28,654 nt of DNA from a virus (taxonomy: Duplodnaviria > Caudoviricetes). A program made the translations under genes and the position numbers. The stretch spans positions 1-28,654 of IMG/VR virus record IMGVR_UViG_3300017754_001603; one strand, 5' to 3'. This document shows, piece after piece, positions 8,308 through 23,687 of this stretch (its first letter is position 1; every line of letters begins with the position of its first letter). A model generated the notes under the pieces. That model made no database searches. It saw only the letters and a list, made by a program, of their open reading frames with translations, and was not told where the DNA came from.

Positions 8308-8523
8308 ATGAGAATAATAACATTAAACCTAACAATGCTCACCAAAATAGTAAATGGTATAGAATTATTCATACAAATGTATCCTGAGAGACCTGCACCA
8401 TCATCTATTAAATTTGAAATGCCTTTTTTATCTGATGAACAAGTAAGAGATTTACTTTACAATAAGTCAATTGAAATAAATAACATTACCTATAATTTAA
8501 AACCATTTGAAGATGAAAAGTAA
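8308..8523 (+). CDS. Hypothetical protein
   Basis: ORF track; A-rich leader. Confidence 0.65.
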   Translation: MRIITLNLTMLTKIVNGIELFIQMYPERPAPSSIKFEMPFLSDEQVRDLLYNKSIEINNITYNLKPFEDEK

Positions 8524-8839
8524 AAGATTAGTAAACGTAAAAGAGAAATTATCTAATGATGTTTTAAGATTAGAACATAGTATTGCAAGATACCTTGTAT
8601 CTAAAAACATTATTCATCCTAAATACCCTGAAGGACAATGGGCATTTATATCTAAAGGAGCATTAAAGTCTAAAGTCAATGACAATAGAAAAAAGCTTAA
8701 TAATATAATGCACATCAATATAAATAAACTATCTCAAAATTATCAGGATGATGCTCAAACAATGATAAGATTTGTAACATCATCAGGTAAAGTAGATGGA
8801 TGGAGAAAATCATTTAATCTATTAACTGAAAACCAATAA
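8507..8839 (+). CDS. Hypothetical basic protein (start probably ATG 8513)
   Basis: ORF track; Lys/Arg rich. Confidence 0.65.
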   Translation: MKMKSKRLVNVKEKLSNDVLRLEHSIARYLVSKNIIHPKYPEGQWAFISKGALKSKVNDNRKKLNNIMHININKLSQNYQDDAQTMIRFVTSSGKVDGWRKSFNLLTENQ

Positions 8840-15932: not shown

Positions 15933-16053
15933 GAAAAAAATATTATCACCAGTAAAAACTGGTACATTAGTCTATACTGCTAAACCTGAAGACTTAGCAG
16001 TACATCTCCAACAGGAACTTAAAACTATTTATAAATCTAAAAAACAAAATTAA
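15925..16053 (+). CDS. 42-aa basic peptide
   Basis: MAKKKILSPVKTGTLVYTAKPEDLAVHLQQELKTIYKSKKQN*; fills the gap between its neighbours exactly. Confidence 0.55.
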   Translation: MAKKKILSPVKTGTLVYTAKPEDLAVHLQQELKTIYKSKKQN

Positions 16054-16054
16054 A

Positions 16055-16315
16055 ATGGAAAAGATCCAAATCACAATCAGTTCAGTATTAAATGATTTAG
16101 CTAACAGCATGACAAGAGAAGAAATCAGAGATAAATATTCTTTGACTAATGCTCAACTAAAACAAGTATTTTCTCATCCACAATTAAAAGGTAGAAAGAC
16201 TAAACAAGTAAATGTATTATTTGAATTAGTTGATGATGTAACTAAAACAGAAACTCAAATAGTAGAATTAGAACCAGTAGCAATAACTCATGACTTTGAT
16301 GTTCAATCTATTTAA
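16055..16315 (+). CDS. Small putative HTH-like protein
   Basis: MTREEIRDKYSLTNAQLKQVF. Confidence 0.55.
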   Translation: MEKIQITISSVLNDLANSMTREEIRDKYSLTNAQLKQVFSHPQLKGRKTKQVNVLFELVDDVTKTETQIVELEPVAITHDFDVQSI

Positions 16316-16344
16316 TTTTTTATAATCCTTTAAATTTATTTATT

Positions 16345-17130
16345 ATGTATGGTTATGCAAATGATGAGAAATCATCAAGTTCAATGGCATTTGGTTTAAA
16401 CCAAGGTGTTAAGATGACTAAGTTGGAATTTAATCCTAATGGTGGTAAAGATGGTGCAGCTCAAGAGTGTCTTGATATTGCATTTGAATTCCCTGGTGGA
16501 TTAGTTAAAAACTACAGACAATTCCCTGTAACTAAAGCTATTGATAAGAATGGCAATCAGGTAACTGATCCTCGTAGTGCAGAAATGAAAGCTGCATTCA
16601 ATGAATTCAATGCAAAGATTTCTCAATTGATGAAATGTTTTGTAACTGAAGAAGAATTGAAAGCTGGATTAAATGCTGCTACAGGGTTTAGATCATTCTG
16701 TGATATCCTTAACAGATTACTTCCATCTAACTTCAGTAATGTAGAAATGGATGTATTCTGCCAATATCCTTGGACTTCTAAGAATGACAATGGTACTAAG
16801 TATGTAGAATTACCATCTAATGTAAAACAAGGTAAAGTATTTGTACCTGCTCAACAAGGTAAATTTGAACCTGTGACATTTAGTCACAAGTCCTCTGAAT
16901 TTACATTTAGAGGTGAAACAGGAACATTAGTACCTGCAGGACCAAAGAAAGTATCTTTAGAAATTAATGGTAAAACACTTACTATTGATGATAATAAAGG
17001 TATCATTTATGTGAAAGTTACAGAAGATGAAGTAATTTTACATCCCATCACTAGAACTGACTGGTTTATGAGTTCTAATTTTGCTAAGAGTTCAACAAGT
17101 GATGAGCCTATTCAATCTTCTTGGGATTAA
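16345..17130 (+). CDS. ssb: Probable single-stranded DNA-binding protein
   Basis: Between the ATPase and primase; beta-rich, with an acidic/aromatic flexible C-terminus (DEPIQSSWD). Confidence 0.55.
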   Translation: MYGYANDEKSSSSMAFGLNQGVKMTKLEFNPNGGKDGAAQECLDIAFEFPGGLVKNYRQFPVTKAIDKNGNQVTDPRSAEMKAAFNEFNAKISQLMKCFVTEEELKAGLNAATGFRSFCDILNRLLPSNFSNVEMDVFCQYPWTSKNDNGTKYVELPSNVKQGKVFVPAQQGKFEPVTFSHKSSEFTFRGETGTLVPAGPKKVSLEINGKTLTIDDNKGIIYVKVTEDEVILHPITRTDWFMSSNFAKSSTSDEPIQSSWD

Positions 17131-17142
17131 AATTAAATAACT

Positions 17143-18096
17143 ATGTATGGCTATCATGATGACATATCATCTATAGATGAATTCTTTTCTAGAATAAATC
17201 AAGAAGAAGTTTTCAAGCATGTGTTTGGAAACTTTGAAGTTGGGACTTATATAAAGAGTCCATTCAGAAATGATGATAGCCCAGGATGTTGGATACAATG
17301 GTATAAAGGTAAATTATATTTTACTGATTTTGCTAATAGTGGTAAAGCTAACTTAGATGTAATAGGTGTAATACAAGAGTATTATTCATTGACATTTAAA
17401 GATGCTATGACCTATATATTAGAAACTGATTTATATCAGGGTGAATCAGAATTTAAAAAATATAAATCTGAATCCATTGTATCTACTACTTCCAATACAT
17501 TAGAGTTTTGTCCTAAACCATTTGATAATTATCATAAGCAATTCTGGTCACAGTATGAGATAACAAGTTCTCAGTTAATAGAAGATAATATATTTGCTAC
17601 TAAGTGGTATAAAGTAAATGGTAATGTATTTACACCATATCCACAGGAAACAACTTATACTATATCTTTTAAGGAACAAGGTATTAAAATATGCAGACCT
17701 AAAGCTAAGGAATACAAATGGTTAACCAATACTACTAAAAATACTATTGGAGGTACATCAAATCTTCCTTTTATAGGTGATACACTATTCATATCTAAAA
17801 GTTATAAGGATTGGAGAGTATTAACTAATCTTGGTAAAGATGTAATATATTTTCAAAATGAGGGTATGTTTCCTAATATGGAAATACTTAGTACTCATTT
17901 AAATATGTTTACAAATGTTATAGTGTTATTTGATAATGATGAGCCAGGTATAATAGCTTCTAACAAGTTAGTAGAGTATATCAATAGTCATTATAAGGAT
18001 AAAGCTATGAATATTGTATTACCATTTGAGGAAAAAGATCCTGCTGATATCATCAAAGCAGGTAAGAAACAAGAATTAATTAATTTTTTAAAGTAA
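17143..18096 (+). CDS. dnaG: DNA primase (DnaG-like, TOPRIM)
   Basis: SPFRNDDSPG...FTDFA N-terminal domain; LFISKSYKD, VLFDNDEPG, KDPAD. Confidence 0.88.
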   Translation: MYGYHDDISSIDEFFSRINQEEVFKHVFGNFEVGTYIKSPFRNDDSPGCWIQWYKGKLYFTDFANSGKANLDVIGVIQEYYSLTFKDAMTYILETDLYQGESEFKKYKSESIVSTTSNTLEFCPKPFDNYHKQFWSQYEITSSQLIEDNIFATKWYKVNGNVFTPYPQETTYTISFKEQGIKICRPKAKEYKWLTNTTKNTIGGTSNLPFIGDTLFISKSYKDWRVLTNLGKDVIYFQNEGMFPNMEILSTHLNMFTNVIVLFDNDEPGIIASNKLVEYINSHYKDKAMNIVLPFEEKDPADIIKAGKKQELINFLK

Positions 18097-18102
18097 ACAA
18101 AC

Positions 18103-18729
18103 ATGAGAACAGTAAAAGTATATAGCACAAGCACAGGTTTATTTCAATTAGAAAGTGCAGCTACAACATGGGAAGAATTACAAGCAGATTTATTATCTAA
18201 TGATATCCCATATCAAGGTATGAAAGTAGTAGAAAGCAGAAACAATACATCTTTAGAAAGAGGTGATGCTGTTTTACCTACAGGATCTTTTGTATTAATG
18301 TTATCTCCAGAGAAAACTAAATCTGGTGGATATAGAGAAACAAGAGAACTTATTCAGTCTATCATTGCTAATTATGGTGATGCTGCTAAAAATCATTTTA
18401 ATCAAGGCAGAAACTATACTCTAAAGTCTGCATCTGAATTAGATTCATTATTGAGTAGTTGGTGGGAGATAGAAGATAATATGGAGAGTGATGATGATTT
18501 TGATACATATGATGCAGATGTAGATAAAATAGAGAAAGCAGTAGAATTAATCAGATCTACTTCATTTTATGATGAAAGAGAAGCTGATTTTGAAATTGCT
18601 ATTGACTTGATTTATGGCAACAAGACTTTAAATAGTCTTAGATCTGAAATCTGTAGAAATGTAATAAGTGTATCTTCATTGTCTAGTGAGGAGCAAGAAT
18701 GGTTGAGAAAGATGTCACAAGGATTGTAA
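18103..18729 (+). CDS. Ubiquitin-like (beta-grasp) protein precursor with a C-terminal extension after KSGG
   Basis: Residues 1-76 show a strand-strand-helix-strand pattern (VKVYS, FQLES, TWEELQADL, MKVVE, FVLML) ending KTKSG75G76; sits next to E2, JAB and E1 genes. Confidence 0.7.
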   Translation: MRTVKVYSTSTGLFQLESAATTWEELQADLLSNDIPYQGMKVVESRNNTSLERGDAVLPTGSFVLMLSPEKTKSGGYRETRELIQSIIANYGDAAKNHFNQGRNYTLKSASELDSLLSSWWEIEDNMESDDDFDTYDADVDKIEKAVELIRSTSFYDEREADFEIAIDLIYGNKTLNSLRSEICRNVISVSSLSSEEQEWLRKMSQGL

Positions 18730-18750
18730 TTAAATAGTTTTATTCATTTT

Positions 18751-18784
18751 AAGTCTGGTAGGGGAAACTCTATCAGACTTTTTT
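18751..18784 (+). terminator. Intrinsic terminator between Ubl and E2 genes
   Basis: AAGTCTGGTAGGG-GAAA-CTCTATCAGACTT-TTTT. Confidence 0.8.
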
Positions 18785-18798
18785 AATCACTAAGAACT

Positions 18799-20085
18799 AT
18801 GTTAACAACTGATGAACTATTCAGAATGTATATCAATAATAAAATTTCTGAAGAAAAATTACACAATATTATCTACACTAAATTTCTAAATAAAGACTTA
18901 TCAAATGATTATTATTTCTTAGAAAATATTGTAGAAGTATTAAATACAATGGAAATTGAATATGAGTATTCTTTAAAATATTTTATATCACATGTATATG
19001 GTAAAGATATATTTGAGTATTTAATGATAAATGCTGGAGTAATAGAAGATTGTAAAATCTTTTCTACAAGAAATGATTTTAATCCAGTAACAGAACATAC
19101 TCACTTTTCATTTAACTATATTAAAATAACTTCATATTTACAAGTAACTCTTTATTTTCCCAAGTTTACCATTAAAAATCAAATGAATAAAAGTAAAATC
19201 ATCAAAGATTTCTTTGTAAAATTTTATATAGATAAAGATGGTAAAATACTCAATTCTAGTTTTGAAGCTTCTAGATCTACTTACACTAACAATGAATTAG
19301 TAGCAGGTTATAGACATTCTCATTTACCTAGAGTTTTTGGTGATAAAAATAATCCTGTATGGTTAAATTTTCAAACTATGTGTTTAGGTTATAATAATCA
19401 AATACATGTATCTATGGCATTACTTGAAGATGCTGTTAAAAAGAAAGAAAATATATCTGATTTCTTTGAATTGTTTGTCAGAAATATAGTATCTGTAATT
19501 GAGTATGAATCTATTGAAGGTACACCATATATAAGAATGTCAGCAATAGATGATGTAGCAAATAAAGTTAAAGCTAAAGAAACTCCTTTTGAGATTAAAA
19601 GATCTGCTTCTAAGTATATAAGATACTATATTAATAATAATGTTCATCACAGTTTGTATGACTATTTAGATGTTTATTATAGTAATAATAATGAACCTAT
19701 TTACTCACTTCCTACAAATGATGACATAGATTATATACTATTTGATAAAGTATTAGATTTTCATTTAGATATATTAGAAGCTGATGTTAAACAATTTGTC
19801 AAAATAGAAGTAGATGGTAGAATTTTAAATGTAGATGAGATAGAAATTAAATCTGATGTAGAAAAAAATTCTAATTATCTAAAGTTCAATGGTAAAAAAT
19901 ATTTTCTAACTATTGATGATACAATAAAGCTTGAAAAAGATAATTATAAGTATGTATTATCAAAAACCTTTAAAAATTATGTTAGACAACAAATTAAAAC
20001 AAACCACATCAAAAGAATTGTCAAGCTTCAAGAAGATGCTACCATTTCTAGACTTGAGTCAGATAGTGACAGTTATCCTTTCTGA
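18799..20085 (+). CDS. Prokaryotic E2/UBC-like conjugating enzyme (multi-domain)
   Basis: GYRH173SH175LP...FQTMC195LG resembles the HPH/HPN...CLG core of bacterial E2 families; operon context. Confidence 0.62.
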   Translation: MLTTDELFRMYINNKISEEKLHNIIYTKFLNKDLSNDYYFLENIVEVLNTMEIEYEYSLKYFISHVYGKDIFEYLMINAGVIEDCKIFSTRNDFNPVTEHTHFSFNYIKITSYLQVTLYFPKFTIKNQMNKSKIIKDFFVKFYIDKDGKILNSSFEASRSTYTNNELVAGYRHSHLPRVFGDKNNPVWLNFQTMCLGYNNQIHVSMALLEDAVKKKENISDFFELFVRNIVSVIEYESIEGTPYIRMSAIDDVANKVKAKETPFEIKRSASKYIRYYINNNVHHSLYDYLDVYYSNNNEPIYSLPTNDDIDYILFDKVLDFHLDILEADVKQFVKIEVDGRILNVDEIEIKSDVEKNSNYLKFNGKKYFLTIDDTIKLEKDNYKYVLSKTFKNYVRQQIKTNHIKRIVKLQEDATISRLESDSDSYPF

Positions 20086-21100
20086 TAAAGTATGGCATAA
20101 AATTCAATTCTTATGTAAGAATATTAGTACTGTAGAATGGTCAGGTTGTATTATATATGATATTAAAGGTAGATTAGATCAACCTGAGAAATTAGATATA
20201 AAAGTATTAGATTTAATTCCATTAGACAAGGGTACAACAGGATTTACTTCATATCATTTTGATGAAAGAGTATTGAATTTTATAGTTGAAAATGATTATT
20301 TAGAATATAAAATAGGTCATATTCATAGTCATCACAATATGAAAACATTCTTTTCAGGAACTGATTTGGAGGAAGTAAATGAAAACTCTGAGCATATTAA
20401 ACCATATCTAAGTATTATAGTAAATAATGCTAATGAGTTTTCTGCTAAGTTGGCATTTAGAATGAAAAGATTATCATCTACTGCTTATCAATATCAAGAT
20501 GTTGACAATAAAACAATGACTTTAGAGTTACCACAAGAAGATGAATATGTGGCTAATTATAACTGTAAAGTTATAATTCCAAATCCATTGTATAATGTTG
20601 ATGTTAAATTTTTAGATCAATTTAATGAAATCAATAAACCTAAAGCAATTGTTAAATCACTTCCTAAGATAAATCCTAAAGAAATTCCATTCTTTGGTGA
20701 AGAAAGCTGGAAAGCAAATAGTAAACTAGATAAACAATTAGAATTTCTATTTGATGATGAATCTATGTTTTCTGATGATTTAAAACAACAAGAAAAATTA
20801 TTCACTACACTTTTAAGATTAGGTGTAGAAATAGAAAATGATTCTTTTGAACAAGCATTAGAAGATATTGAGAATTGTATTGTATCTGATCCTGAATTTA
20901 CTTTAGAGCAATATGCTTATTCATTAAATAAGAATTTTGATAGGATAACTACTGAAATCTTAAAGTTAAAGCCTAAAGCTAAAGATTACAAGGAGCAATT
21001 AGAATACTATAAAGAAACATTTCTTGAGGAATTACACTATAGTCAATATGATTATAGGTTTATATTTTATTTAGTAGAATTGTTAGAACAACAAAATTAA
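19979..21100 (+). CDS. JAB/JAMM (MPN+) metallo-isopeptidase (start ATG 19979 or 20036)
   Basis: EWSG...IGHIHSHHNMKTFFSGTD is an exact E...H-x-H-x7-S-x2-D motif. Confidence 0.9.
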   Translation: MLDNKLKQTTSKELSSFKKMLPFLDLSQIVTVILSDKVWHKIQFLCKNISTVEWSGCIIYDIKGRLDQPEKLDIKVLDLIPLDKGTTGFTSYHFDERVLNFIVENDYLEYKIGHIHSHHNMKTFFSGTDLEEVNENSEHIKPYLSIIVNNANEFSAKLAFRMKRLSSTAYQYQDVDNKTMTLELPQEDEYVANYNCKVIIPNPLYNVDVKFLDQFNEINKPKAIVKSLPKINPKEIPFFGEESWKANSKLDKQLEFLFDDESMFSDDLKQQEKLFTTLLRLGVEIENDSFEQALEDIENCIVSDPEFTLEQYAYSLNKNFDRITTEILKLKPKAKDYKEQLEYYKETFLEELHYSQYDYRFIFYLVELLEQQN

Positions 21101-21106
21101 AATATT

Positions 21107-21814
21107 ATGAACAGAAATAGATTTAAGGATGCAATATGGTATGGGAAATATGTTAGAGTAAATATTGGTGGTGCTGGTGGCATTGGCAGTTGGTTAGCAT
21201 TTTTCTTAGCTAAAGCAGGATTTGAAATAACACAATATGATTTTGATACAGTAGAAGAACATAATCTTGGTGGTCAATTATTTTTTGCTGATTCTATAGG
21301 TGAATTAAAGACTGTTGCAGTAGAAAATCTATTATCTGAATTTGTAAGAACTGGATATAGATATAATGGTCGCATTTCTAAAATTGAACCTAATACTACA
21401 TTAAAAACATACATGCATAATGGTATGCCTATCTATGTATCTGCATTTGATAATATGGAAGCTAGAAAAGTTATGTTTAATAAGTTTTTAGAAGATTCAG
21501 ATCAAAATGCATTATTTGTAGATGGTAGATTATTGATGGAGCAAATGAGAATTTATGTAATTAAGAAAAATCAATCTGATAGAATCTTAAATTATATAGA
21601 TAAACATTTGTTTGATGATTCTGAAGTAGAAGAAGCACCATGTACTATGAAACAAGTAAGTCATAGTGCAGCTATGATTGCATCTCATATGACAGCATTT
21701 ATTACAAATTCTGTAGCTAATCATTTTGTATGGAAAGATAATGTATTTAAAGTTCCATACATATGGGATTATGTTATTCCAACTAATTGTGTAACTGAAA
21801 CTTATGATTTATGA
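21107..21814 (+). CDS. ThiF/E1-like ubiquitin-like-protein activating enzyme
   Basis: GAGGIGS, DFDTVEEHNLGGQ, K, SAFDNMEAR, DGR, and EAPCT (candidate catalytic Cys); no CxxC zinc site. Confidence 0.9.
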   Translation: MNRNRFKDAIWYGKYVRVNIGGAGGIGSWLAFFLAKAGFEITQYDFDTVEEHNLGGQLFFADSIGELKTVAVENLLSEFVRTGYRYNGRISKIEPNTTLKTYMHNGMPIYVSAFDNMEARKVMFNKFLEDSDQNALFVDGRLLMEQMRIYVIKKNQSDRILNYIDKHLFDDSEVEEAPCTMKQVSHSAAMIASHMTAFITNSVANHFVWKDNVFKVPYIWDYVIPTNCVTETYDL

Positions 21815-22278
21815 ATCCAATAACATTTCCTTATCATAGTGTGTTTATAAAATTATATACTCGTAGCCAAAATGTAAGAACAGATTTTACTTTACCAATA
21901 TTTAAAAATCATTATCCATTATTAAATATTAATAATAATTTTACATATTTAAGAAGTGGTGTAGTAAAAACTGCTAATAAAATTTATGAATATTGGTTAC
22001 ATGGAGATAGTTTGATTTACATAGAATCTGAAAATATACTTGTTGGTAAAGGTATAGTTTTAGATGCAGAAACATTAGATATATTAATAGTAACAGTAGT
22101 TCCTAAAAAATATATTAGTGTAGCATATACTAATAAAGGTTATTTAGATCGTTGTTTAGAAATTTATGTTAGTCAAGATTTTGTAGGTTCAAAAGCATTT
22201 AATAAATTACATCCGTTTACTAAAAACATTAAATTAATTGCTTTACCTAACAAAGAATTGAAGAAACTTTATGGCTAA
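21811..22278 (+). CDS. Hypothetical protein coupled to the E1 gene
   Basis: ATGA overlap with the E1 stop. Confidence 0.7.
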   Translation: MNPITFPYHSVFIKLYTRSQNVRTDFTLPIFKNHYPLLNINNNFTYLRSGVVKTANKIYEYWLHGDSLIYIESENILVGKGIVLDAETLDILIVTVVPKKYISVAYTNKGYLDRCLEIYVSQDFVGSKAFNKLHPFTKNIKLIALPNKELKKLYG

Positions 22279-22642
22279 CACTAACAGAACTAAAGGGCAT
22301 AATGCTGAAAGGCTATATGCCCTTAAATTTAAAGAATTATTTGAAGATTGTCAAACTAGTAGATATGCATCAAGAATGTTAGATGATGCAGGAGTTGACT
22401 TAGCAAATATTCCTTTATTAGTTCAGATTAAAGCAGGATTGCAAAAAGGATTAAAGGCTGAAGAAGTCCTAAAAAACATTGAAACTAAACTTCCTAAACT
22501 CTCTAAACAACTTCCTAAAGTATTAATACATCATAAACAAGGAACAGCAGGTAAAAAGAGAGATGAATATAGTTCAATGGTAACTATGACTTTTGAAGAT
22601 TTTTTTACATTATTAAAATTAGCATATGGTAATAAGGAGTAA
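22271..22642 (+). CDS. PD-(D/E)xK Holliday-junction-resolvase-like nuclease
   Basis: NRTKGHNAER...DDAGVDL...VQIK. Confidence 0.75.
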   Translation: MANTNRTKGHNAERLYALKFKELFEDCQTSRYASRMLDDAGVDLANIPLLVQIKAGLQKGLKAEEVLKNIETKLPKLSKQLPKVLIHHKQGTAGKKRDEYSSMVTMTFEDFFTLLKLAYGNKE

Positions 22643-23687
22643 TAAAAAAGCAATACAAGAATATATAGAATCTTCAGCATTAAATCAGAGTAAATTAAAA
22701 CTTTTAAGTATAAGTGCACAAGCATTTCAAGAAGTTAGAGAACCTGATTTATTCTTTGAAGAGAAAGAACATTTCTTGATTGGTAAAGCAGTAGATGATG
22801 TTATTACAATGGGAGAAGATTATTGGAATGATAACTATTACATTAGTAATATTACTAAACCAAGTGATACTATTATGTCAATAATCCAACAAGTATTTCA
22901 AAGTAGAACATCAGATAGTTTATTTGAAAATGATTTACTTTCAGCTATTGAAGCTCATAACTATCAACCTAATTGGAAAATAGATACTAAGATTGCAAAA
23001 GTTTCTACAGAAGGTGAAGTATATTGGCATGAACTAGTACAAAGTGAAGGTAAAACTATACTAGATAAGGATCAATATATGAAATGTGTATCTATAGTTA
23101 ATCAGTTACAAGAGCATAGATTTACTAGAGATTATTTTATTGCTGATGCTAAGTATAATCATGATATTCATTATCAAGTACCAATTCATTTTTATGTAGA
23201 TGAGGTAGAGTGTAAAGCATTATTGGATATGGTTATTGTAGATCATATGTATAAAACTATAATTCCAATAGATATTAAAACTATGGGAGATTATACTAAG
23301 TTTTTTGATTATCAAGCTTTAAGAAGAAGATATGATATCCAAGCATCATGGTATATGAAAGCATTGCAACAATGGAAAGAAGATAACAATATGCAAGATT
23401 ATGCTATCCATGAGTTTAGATTTATTGTTGCATCTACTACTAAGCAATGTGATCCACTAATTTATTTATGTTCTCAAGAGTTTATCAATGCAGGTGAATT
23501 TGGTTCAAGTAGATTAAGAGCAATTAAGGTTTCTAATACTACTTATGAGTCAGAATTATACTCTTATGGTTGGAGAAAACTCTTATATATTTATAAGTGG
23601 CATCAAGAAAATGGATGGGATAAAGATTATGAAATAGAGATGAATAATGGTATATTTACTATTGGTTCAGATTATCAAAAATACTAG
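22626..23687 (+). CDS. PD-(D/E)xK exonuclease (RecE/ExoVIII/DUF3799-like)
   Basis: LNQSKLK, IGKAVD, CKALLD, IDIKT, YDIQASWY. Confidence 0.8.
   Translation: MVIRSNKKAIQEYIESSALNQSKLKLLSISAQAFQEVREPDLFFEEKEHFLIGKAVDDVITMGEDYWNDNYYISNITKPSDTIMSIIQQVFQSRTSDSLFENDLLSAIEAHNYQPNWKIDTKIAKVSTEGEVYWHELVQSEGKTILDKDQYMKCVSIVNQLQEHRFTRDYFIADAKYNHDIHYQVPIHFYVDEVECKALLDMVIVDHMYKTIIPIDIKTMGDYTKFFDYQALRRRYDIQASWYMKALQQWKEDNNMQDYAIHEFRFIVASTTKQCDPLIYLCSQEFINAGEFGSSRLRAIKVSNTTYESELYSYGWRKLLYIYKWHQENGWDKDYEIEMNNGIFTIGSDYQKY

Follow-up and report, generated by a model that had tools for sequence, protein, structure and literature searches.

A ubiquitin-like protein with a conserved helical extension, encoded behind the primase gene of Bacteroidota phages, as a putative precursor for JAB processing

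Background

Does a phage synthesize its own ubiquitin-like (Ubl) modifier as a precursor that has to be cut before use, and what then becomes of the part that is cut away? The question is raised by an open reading frame (ORF) of 208 amino acids located on the plus strand at 18103..18729 (stop codon 18727-18729, last residue L208) of the virus record IMGVR_UViG_3300017754_001603 (Duplodnaviria; Caudoviricetes). The complete IMG/VR record of 28,654 bases, estimated to represent about one third of a genome, was analysed and is referred to below as the window. The ORF encodes a predicted Ubl domain followed by a long C-terminal extension, and precedes the genes for a protein of 428 amino acids, a JAB/JAMM metallopeptidase and a ThiF-type adenylating enzyme (E1).

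To our knowledge, prokaryotic ubiquitin-like conjugation has so far been described in defence operons of bacteria (CBASS, Bil) and in the Bub and PRTRC operons, which are uncharacterised. The cutting of a Ubl precursor by a JAB peptidase is already known. New in the present case are the orphan conserved helical extension as the fused part, together with a graded natural series of tail lengths, and the encoding of the cassette by viruses, namely Bacteroidota phages, at a fixed place of their replication module. In the literature we found no description of a phage-encoded cassette of Ubl, E2-like protein, JAB and E1, although further papers on the genomics of crAss-like phages might mention these genes, and no paper combining 'crAss-like' and 'ThiF'.

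In this work we have analysed the Ubl gene, its homologues and its neighbours by computational means. By analogy with known systems we consider it fairly probable that the product is a precursor which is cut by the JAB peptidase between G75 and G76 and then activated and conjugated, and that the extension blocks these steps until it is cut off and most likely plays an accessory role afterwards.

Results

A single invariant glycine ends the Ubl domain

The codons GGT (18325..18327, plus strand) and GGA (18328..18330, plus strand) encode G75 and G76, directly preceded by K-T-K-S, and the reading frame runs for 132 residues past G76. The initial annotation, made from the letters of the window, had read this pair correctly within the ORF and had taken it for a di-glycine numbered as in ubiquitin and followed by a cargo of 132 residues. 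A profile scan of IMG/VR gave 64 related loci. The extended reading frames, from 63 viral loci and the window, correspond to 47 unique sequences, the window included. Position 75 is glycine in all 47; it is preceded by serine (41) or alanine (6) at position 74 and by lysine at position 73 in 44 sequences, whereas position 76 is variable (A11, S10, G7, K6, N3, V2 and others). In a second test 163 proteins in hand were scanned with the profile of the Ubl domain. The last profile position was reached by 162 of these representatives and is glycine in every one, the preceding pair being K-S in 129 and K-A in 25, and the residue that follows again varies (A56, G24, L16, S12, I12, V11 and others). 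In tblastn comparisons the matches end exactly at query residue 75 in 17 related loci.

Judged from these alignments, the invariance of G75 is well beyond chance, and the comparison supports the view that the last glycine of the Ubl domain behaves as the reactive end of a modifier. The conserved terminal glycine by which Ubl modifiers are recognised is thus found at G75, and the second glycine is not conserved. Two expectations of the initial annotation, that the glycine should be kept among homologues, which it had named beforehand as a test, and that conservation should fall right after K-x-G, agree with these counts. Its di-glycine does not, as position 76 is glycine in just 7 of the 47 and 24 of the 162 sequences; because the conserved feature is a single glycine, the ubiquitin-like numbering is a coincidence of this phage lineage. 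Since only G75 is conserved, the scissile bond is predicted at G75|G76, with G75 as the C-terminus of the mature modifier, so that the released piece would count 133 residues and not 132.

Predicted fold of residues 1-75

The 208-residue protein was modelled with AlphaFold2 from an alignment of 15 sequences (mean predicted local distance difference test score, pLDDT, of 79). Residues 2-69 are predicted to form a strand-strand-helix-strand-strand arrangement, residues 73-75 a low-confidence tail (pLDDT <50), and residues 77-205 helices exclusively. The predicted template modelling score (pTM) of the whole model, 0.36, fits a Ubl domain and an extension that are two independent parts. When the N-terminal part was compared with the PDB by Foldseek, the top matches were ubiquitin, SUMO1 and NEDD8 with a probability of 1.00 and target-normalised template modelling scores of 0.55-0.69; nearly all of the matches listed were ubiquitin-like chains, and no ThiS or MoaD title occurred among the 50 listed. 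The predicted structure of residues 1-75 is therefore the beta-grasp fold of Ubl modifiers, and the comparison supports their assignment as a Ubl domain (18103..18327, plus strand, ending K-T-K-S-G), which has a mean pairwise identity of 0.46 among 21 long homologues.

The Pfam models of ubiquitin, ThiS, MoaD and Prok_Ub gave no match at E up to 1 in 37 family members, and the Ubl protein belongs to no family in Pfam, NCBIfam or PADLOC. Its sole family match was PHROG phrog_15560, for which the function is not known.

The C-terminal extension

The extension (residues 76-208; 18328..18726, plus strand) is predicted to be all-helical and is acidic, with 28 D+E against 14 K+R in its 133 residues. 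The helical acidic domain of the initial annotation was in this respect well described, but the acidic run that it had pointed out, residues 124-141 (18472..18525, plus strand), is poorly conserved (identity 0.16) and is better taken for a linker than for a folded helix, because residues 129-136 have a pLDDT <50. Among the 21 long forms the identity is 0.25 for residues 76-91, rises to 0.43 in a block of residues 92-110 (A-K-x-H-F-N ... N-Y-T; 18376..18432, plus strand) and is 0.16-0.22 in the remaining regions. Within this block A95, N104 and T106 are invariant in alignment A1. The last residues, 192-208 (18676..18726, plus strand), form an amphipathic motif that recurs as a visual pattern in the long and intermediate forms of alignment A4.

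Nucleotide differences were counted between the window and its closest DNA relative, locus L002. The Ubl domains differ by one synonymous and no non-synonymous change, and the extensions by 12 synonymous and 19 non-synonymous changes. The ratio of non-synonymous to synonymous rates (dN/dS) for the extension, 0.35 overall, 0.22-0.24 in its head and tail and 0.46 in the acidic linker, derives from this single pair with small counts. Taken with the alignments, it shows an extension that appears to be under purifying selection and to carry conserved blocks. In the same pair the synonymous rate (dS) of the Ubl domain (18103-18327 compared with 2814-3038 of L002) is about eight times below that of the extension (0.021 versus 0.179), for which recombination or an RNA-level constraint may be responsible.

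No family or fold match for the extension was found in Pfam, PDB sequences or the ESM Atlas, and profile searches of PDB sequences with the extension and with the 428-residue protein gave nothing below E 0.067. A PADLOC match of the extension to PbeC (E 0.0028, 14 bits) was taken as chance.

Tail lengths within the family

None of the 47 unique sequences ends at the glycine itself, so all forms of the family would need trimming. Counted from the chosen start (the ATG nearest to the match start), on which the lengths depend, the tails span from 1 to >260 residues. A tail of only 1-3 residues is found in 11 of the 47 sequences (13 of the 63 complete loci), whereas in 30 sequences it has at least 116 residues. 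Between these extremes there are two helical-looking tails of 21-22 residues, two of 56 residues, and two rich in Lys, Ala, Val and Pro, of 62 and 75 residues. The latter two (locus L059, 5574-5987, and locus L062, 5977-6453), one of which matches the histone H1-like family PF07382 (E 3e-4), provide a hint that some tails may bind DNA. With an iterated profile the homologous extension was detected in 40 loci, in each case joined to the Ubl domain within one ORF; an ORF of the extension alone did not occur. A word-indexed search for shorter homologues gave none, which reflects the limit of its sensitivity and not their absence, as short forms exist in viral contigs.

In eleven loci, all of them with short forms, the Ubl gene is followed by a gap of 150 nt or more. 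Nine of these gaps hold an ORF of 42-104 codons placed directly after the Ubl gene, its ATG overlapping the Ubl stop codon in five loci. These small ORFs resemble one another, and acidic ones are found at L034 6277-6426, L043 6252-6386, L044 6218-6532, L046 6238-6390, L054 4412-4540, L056 1530-1685, L061 4729-4869 and L065 6192-6332.

Distribution in phages and cells

An exhaustive search of 1.84 billion representatives with the profile of the modifier family gave 2142 clusters (50% identity) at E 0.001 or better, of which 1125 reached 1e-10 or better and 167 reached 1e-30 or better. The long extension is carried by all 150 representatives listed at 50% identity. When the window protein was used in tblastn, 29 phage records were found, all of them Flavobacterium psychrophilum phages (Fipvunavirus), and in Flavobacterium phage Fpv1 the gene order is that of the window. 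The JAB protein reached further, with 74 records comprising 29 of Flavobacterium, 29 of Bacteroides and 16 others (12 'uncultured' and 4 others), of which the listed ones are crAss-like phages.

Phage crAss001 (locus L068, 2965-7375) carries the cassette as gp79-gp76, in the order primase gp80, gp79, gp78, gp77, gp76. Its gp79 and gp78 are annotated as hypothetical, gp77 as 'metalloprotease domain' and gp76 as 'ThiF'. In comparison with the family profile (hhalign probability 99%, E 8e-18) gp79 appears as a clear homologue of the putative precursor: it has K-I-K-S-G followed by Ala, and a long extension with both the conserved block and the C-terminal motif. Among 185,579 species genomes scanned, one relative was found, on a 20-kb contig of a Chitinophagales metagenome-assembled genome, and there is no sign of an origin in bacteria or of a reservoir in prophages.

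In Fpv1 (locus L001, 8373-9403) an insertion splits the JAB gene within its zinc-motif codons, between G-H and I-H-S-H. The insertion contains a match to the group I intron model RF00028 (43.4 bits with a gathering score of 50, E 1.8e-9, 8373-8618) and, on the opposite strand, an ORF for a LAGLIDADG endonuclease (PF00961, E 3e-10), and in the Fpv3/FpV4-type locus L030 (8056-9327) the JAB gene is uninterrupted. The Fpv1 'hypothetical proteins' gp56 and gp54 are for these reasons probably encoded by the exons of one JAB gene.

Enzymes of the cassette and genomic setting

The window encodes the large terminase and an endolysin on its minus strand and, on the plus strand, a replication block with DNA polymerase, helicases, a Sak4-like protein and primase. 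The Ubl ORF starts 7 bases past the primase stop codon, and a primase gene lies upstream of the cassette throughout the family. The order Ubl, 428-residue protein, JAB, E1 is identical behind short and long forms. Of 65 loci, 56 have a match to the 428-residue protein, 47 to the JAB and 45 to the E1. All nine loci without the 428-residue protein end <500 nt past the Ubl stop codon, the 20 without E1 are cut-short loci, and an intact JAB and E1 follow in every related locus of sufficient length. The modifier candidate is thus encoded alongside its cognate E1, and it was the only Ubl candidate seen in the cassette.

The E1-like enzyme (235 amino acids; 21107..21814, plus strand) matches the ThiF family PF00899 at E 4.1e-14 and 52.8 bits, over the cut-off of 28.1, and consists of one adenylation domain. 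Its nucleotide loop is encoded at 21167-21187 and C179 at 21641-21643; G22, G24, D45, D47, K68, D115, R120, D139, C179 and H186 are invariant in 24 of 24 sequences. The JAB/JAMM metallopeptidase (20036..21100, plus strand) matches the PADLOC JAB model at E 1.2e-4 and has the full JAMM zinc site (E ... HxH x7 S x2 D), with E34 at 20135-20137 and H97-x-H99-x7-S107-x2-D110 at 20324-20365; H97, H99, S107 and D110 are invariant in 27 of 27 sequences and E34 is found in 26. The start of this gene is uncertain: the frame is open from a TTG at 19931, which would overlap the gene for the 428-residue protein by 155 nt, compared with 50 nt from the ATG at 20036, and in relatives the ORFs listed for the two proteins overlap by roughly 50-180 nt.

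The 428-residue protein (18799..20085, plus strand) is probably E2-like, as far as its model allows. The residues N127, H175 (19321-19323), C195 (19381-19383), G197, E237, S238, G241 and P243 are invariant in 33 sequences. The AlphaFold2 model (pLDDT 77.8, pTM 0.68) shows a helix, four long strands, a loop with H175 and C195, and then helices. In a VIA-align structural search against representative chains the best Z was 6.2, and about 30 of the 50 matches listed were E2/UBC/UEV by title (Z 4.5-5.6), including BubB (9eav_D, Z 5.4, model residues 34-239) and Cap2 (7to3_A, Z 4.8), where a Z <8 may reflect just a common arrangement. No family was found in Pfam, NCBIfam or PADLOC and no usable match in the ESM Atlas. 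Residues 260-415 (19576-20043) also gave weak matches to N-terminal domains of MCM proteins (7dpd_A, Z 5.2; 7wi7_B, Z 5.1; 3ja8_6, Z 4.7), which would be of interest for a replication-module gene and yet are well within the range of chance.

The 69 nt that separate the Ubl gene from the gene for the 428-residue protein contain a terminator-like hairpin of 13 pairs with a T-run (18751..18786, plus strand), and no second site of this kind was found in 16000-22700. In 26 of 40 distinct related loci a hairpin with a T-run, of -7 kcal/mol or stronger, lies within 110 nt of the Ubl stop codon, the hairpins at that place being mutually unrelated. This position suggests that more transcript is made of the modifier gene than of the genes for its enzymes.

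Discussion

According to the proposed scheme the JAB, the only peptidase in the cassette, would cut between G75 and G76, giving a 75-residue modifier that ends K-T-K-S-G and a helical fragment of 133 residues. An E1 requires a free C-terminal carboxylate, and for this reason the extension would keep the modifier from activation until the cut. By analogy with Bil and Bub, the ThiF-type E1 would then adenylate the free carboxylate of Gly75, possibly with a thioester on C179, and the modifier would be handed over to C195 of the E2-like protein. Its attachment to proteins of the phage or the host would take place in the course of DNA replication, and the JAB may undo the conjugates as well. Because it carries conserved blocks under purifying selection, the released extension would most likely serve as an accessory protein of the same pathway, which is the weakest step of the scheme.

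Several observations weigh against it. The extension is absent from 13 of the 63 related loci, its conserved blocks would be just as well explained by a function that it has in cis, without being cut, and the sign of selection on it was read from one pair of sequences. The small ORFs behind short-form Ubl genes found no support as a split-off extension (hhalign probability 0.3%, E 0.2); their profile ranks the 21-residue tail of locus L035 first, at E 0.03 among 46 sequences. As they are not demonstrably homologous to the extension, the argument that the partner is either fused or separate is merely positional. On the side of the enzymes, the JAB scores under the cut-off of 25 with Pfam PF14464 (19.2 bits, E 0.0012). 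For the 428-residue protein no Pfam E2 family was found in any of 33 members and no Foldseek match of its model at E 0.001 or better, and its VIA-align scores fall in the range of a common arrangement. The best NCBIfam matches of the E1 are ThiS adenylyltransferases (ThiF models; E 1.1e-17, under the cut-off), which would suit a sulfur-carrier role.

The loci without extension retain the same enzymes, as would be expected if it were a disposable pro-peptide that, as a timer or a safety catch, holds the modifier inactive up to the synthesis of the JAB and leaves a functionless fragment once it is cut off. The poor conservation of most of its length (identity 0.16-0.25), the lack of a recognisable family or fold and the one-residue throw-away tail of BilA (PMC10557695) point the same way. 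A block as conserved as the Ubl domain (0.43 versus 0.46), the low dN/dS of head and tail and the retention of a long extension by all listed representatives and by gp79 of crAss001 would be hard to reconcile with such a role, for which 130 residues are unnecessary, and we regard it as rather unlikely, though still worth keeping in mind. That the protein is never cut and acts as a two-domain adaptor, like eukaryotic proteins with a Ubl domain, while the JAB, the E1 and the 428-residue protein act elsewhere, has in our opinion very little probability. The conserved blocks and the recurring C-terminal motif could dock a partner, and the model gives two independent domains (pTM 0.36), but these enzymes would then have no other Ubl candidate in the cassette. 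Moreover, a linker position gives no reason for an invariant glycine, homologues that stop 1-3 residues past it retain the same three enzymes, and the boundary residues 73-75 are the least confident and most flexible part of the model.

Hardly more credit can be given to a sulfur-carrier pathway of the ThiS/MoaD type, which we consider improbable. Here the JAB would just trim the protein, a role that has been predicted for it in operons with ThiS/MoaD, the E1 would adenylate the exposed glycine on the way to a thiocarboxylate, and the 428-residue protein would thiolate a nucleotide, a cofactor or DNA. Besides the scores of the minimal E1, the place of the cassette would fit: its neighbours are genes of replication and nucleotide metabolism, a setting in which genes for DNA modification are often found in phages. 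Sulfur carriers usually end in G-G, whereas the terminus is K-[SA]-G in this family. Both the Foldseek matches, which are ubiquitin/SUMO/NEDD8-like, and the failure of the Pfam ThiS and MoaD models speak against membership, the cassette proteins gave no match to rhodanese, cysteine desulfurase, ThiG or MoaE, and the fold matches of the 428-residue protein are enriched for E2/UBC chains. Operons with ThiS/MoaD, JAB and E1 have been listed by Iyer et al. (PMC1779556), which adds to the side of the sulfur carrier.

The precursor pathway that we favour would resemble Bil or Bub in its working, but the cassette falls outside Bil, Bub and PRTRC when their defining components are looked for. The closest precedents for the cut, both of them experimental, come from Bub and Bil. 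In type I Bub (formerly 6E.1/DUF6527) the JAB domain of BubCD is reported to cut the Ubl-E2 fusion BubAB right after the conserved G229, freeing two functional proteins (PMC11601596). Both systems have a Ubl fused to a sizeable C-terminal domain, a cut by the cognate JAB after a conserved glycine (here predicted) and, as E1, an adenylation domain of the homodimer type to which no separate Cys domain belongs, and BubB is, as noted, among the fold matches of the 428-residue protein. In contrast to Bub, a bacterial operon, the cassette lies inside the replication module of lytic-type phages. Its fused part is an orphan helical domain and not an E2, the JAB and E1 are separate genes and not a fusion, and no match to the DUF6527 protease (BubE) was found in ten ORFs scanned between 16345 and 24259.

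BilABCD, like the phage cassette, consists of four separate genes for Ubl, E2, JAB and E1, and its JAB pre-processes the Ubl to expose a glycine: BilC has been reported to cut BilA between G97 and A98 (PMC10557695), and the BilA tail given in this source resembles the 1-3 residue tails of the short forms. Unlike the phage-carried cassette, Bil defends bacteria against phages, and the tail is here 133 residues long. Among the PADLOC Bil models only BilD gave a match (E 0.0036, 14 bits), with none for BilA, BilB or BilC, and the E1 of the window, with 235 residues and one adenylation domain, is not that of Bil.

A phage-encoded Ubl with a second domain has been described in TAPI of lambda and T1, for which a cut by the JAB of TAPK was predicted in 2006 (Iyer, Burroughs and Aravind; PMC1779556). 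In that account TAPI shares with the present protein a conserved glycine, a linker, a second small domain and a predicted JAB release at the last Ubl glycine. It differs in that it is placed in a tail-assembly cluster, has a glycine-rich linker and is presented without E1 or E2, whereas the protein of the window follows a primase gene and is accompanied by an E1 and an E2-like protein. The same paper lists a 'novel alpha-helical protein' as the fifth component of the class 6d operons, which have the same four activities and an extra, rapidly diverging helical protein. By analogy, the latter is a candidate functional analogue of the extension and of the small helical ORFs after short-form Ubl genes. 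The E2-like proteins of class 6d differ in having the His after the Cys (PMC1779556), as opposed to H175 before C195 here. The NCBIfam models of PRTRC/class 6d (TIGR03735-03738) place the cassette outside that group, PRTRC_ThiF reaching 40 bits against 144.75 and PRTRC_A 13.3 against 101.8, with no match for the Ubl or the 428-residue protein.

In eukaryotes ubiquitin is made as precursors, namely ubiquitin-ribosomal protein fusions and polyubiquitin, which are freed by deubiquitinases and give their products in equal amounts. The phage modifier is likewise made as one chain with a second polypeptide, but the peptidases and the cargo are different and it has one terminal glycine instead of two; the relation is one of fold, not of sequence.

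Conclusions

In the phages analysed here a whole Ubl set is carried by the virus itself, conserved beside the primase gene and widespread. We tentatively raise the possibility that Bacteroidota phages, crAss-type and related, have a complete Ubl tagging pathway of their own in the replication module, and that many of them fuse the modifier to a functional helical partner and act on replication or host-defence proteins; this broader statement is doubtful at present. The phage crAss001 is a laboratory model of the most abundant phage group of the human gut, and the presence of the cassette in it and in cultured Flavobacterium phages makes the question testable in a cultured phage-host pair. The precursor design offers a handle of its own, with one invariant glycine, a predicted cut site and a tail series from 1 to >260 residues, by which one may study the recognition of a substrate by the JAB and a possible function of the released piece. 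If the broader statement is true, a single JAB cut would yield modifier and partner in equal amounts, and these genes would be a viral counterpart of the eukaryotic ubiquitin-fusion genes.

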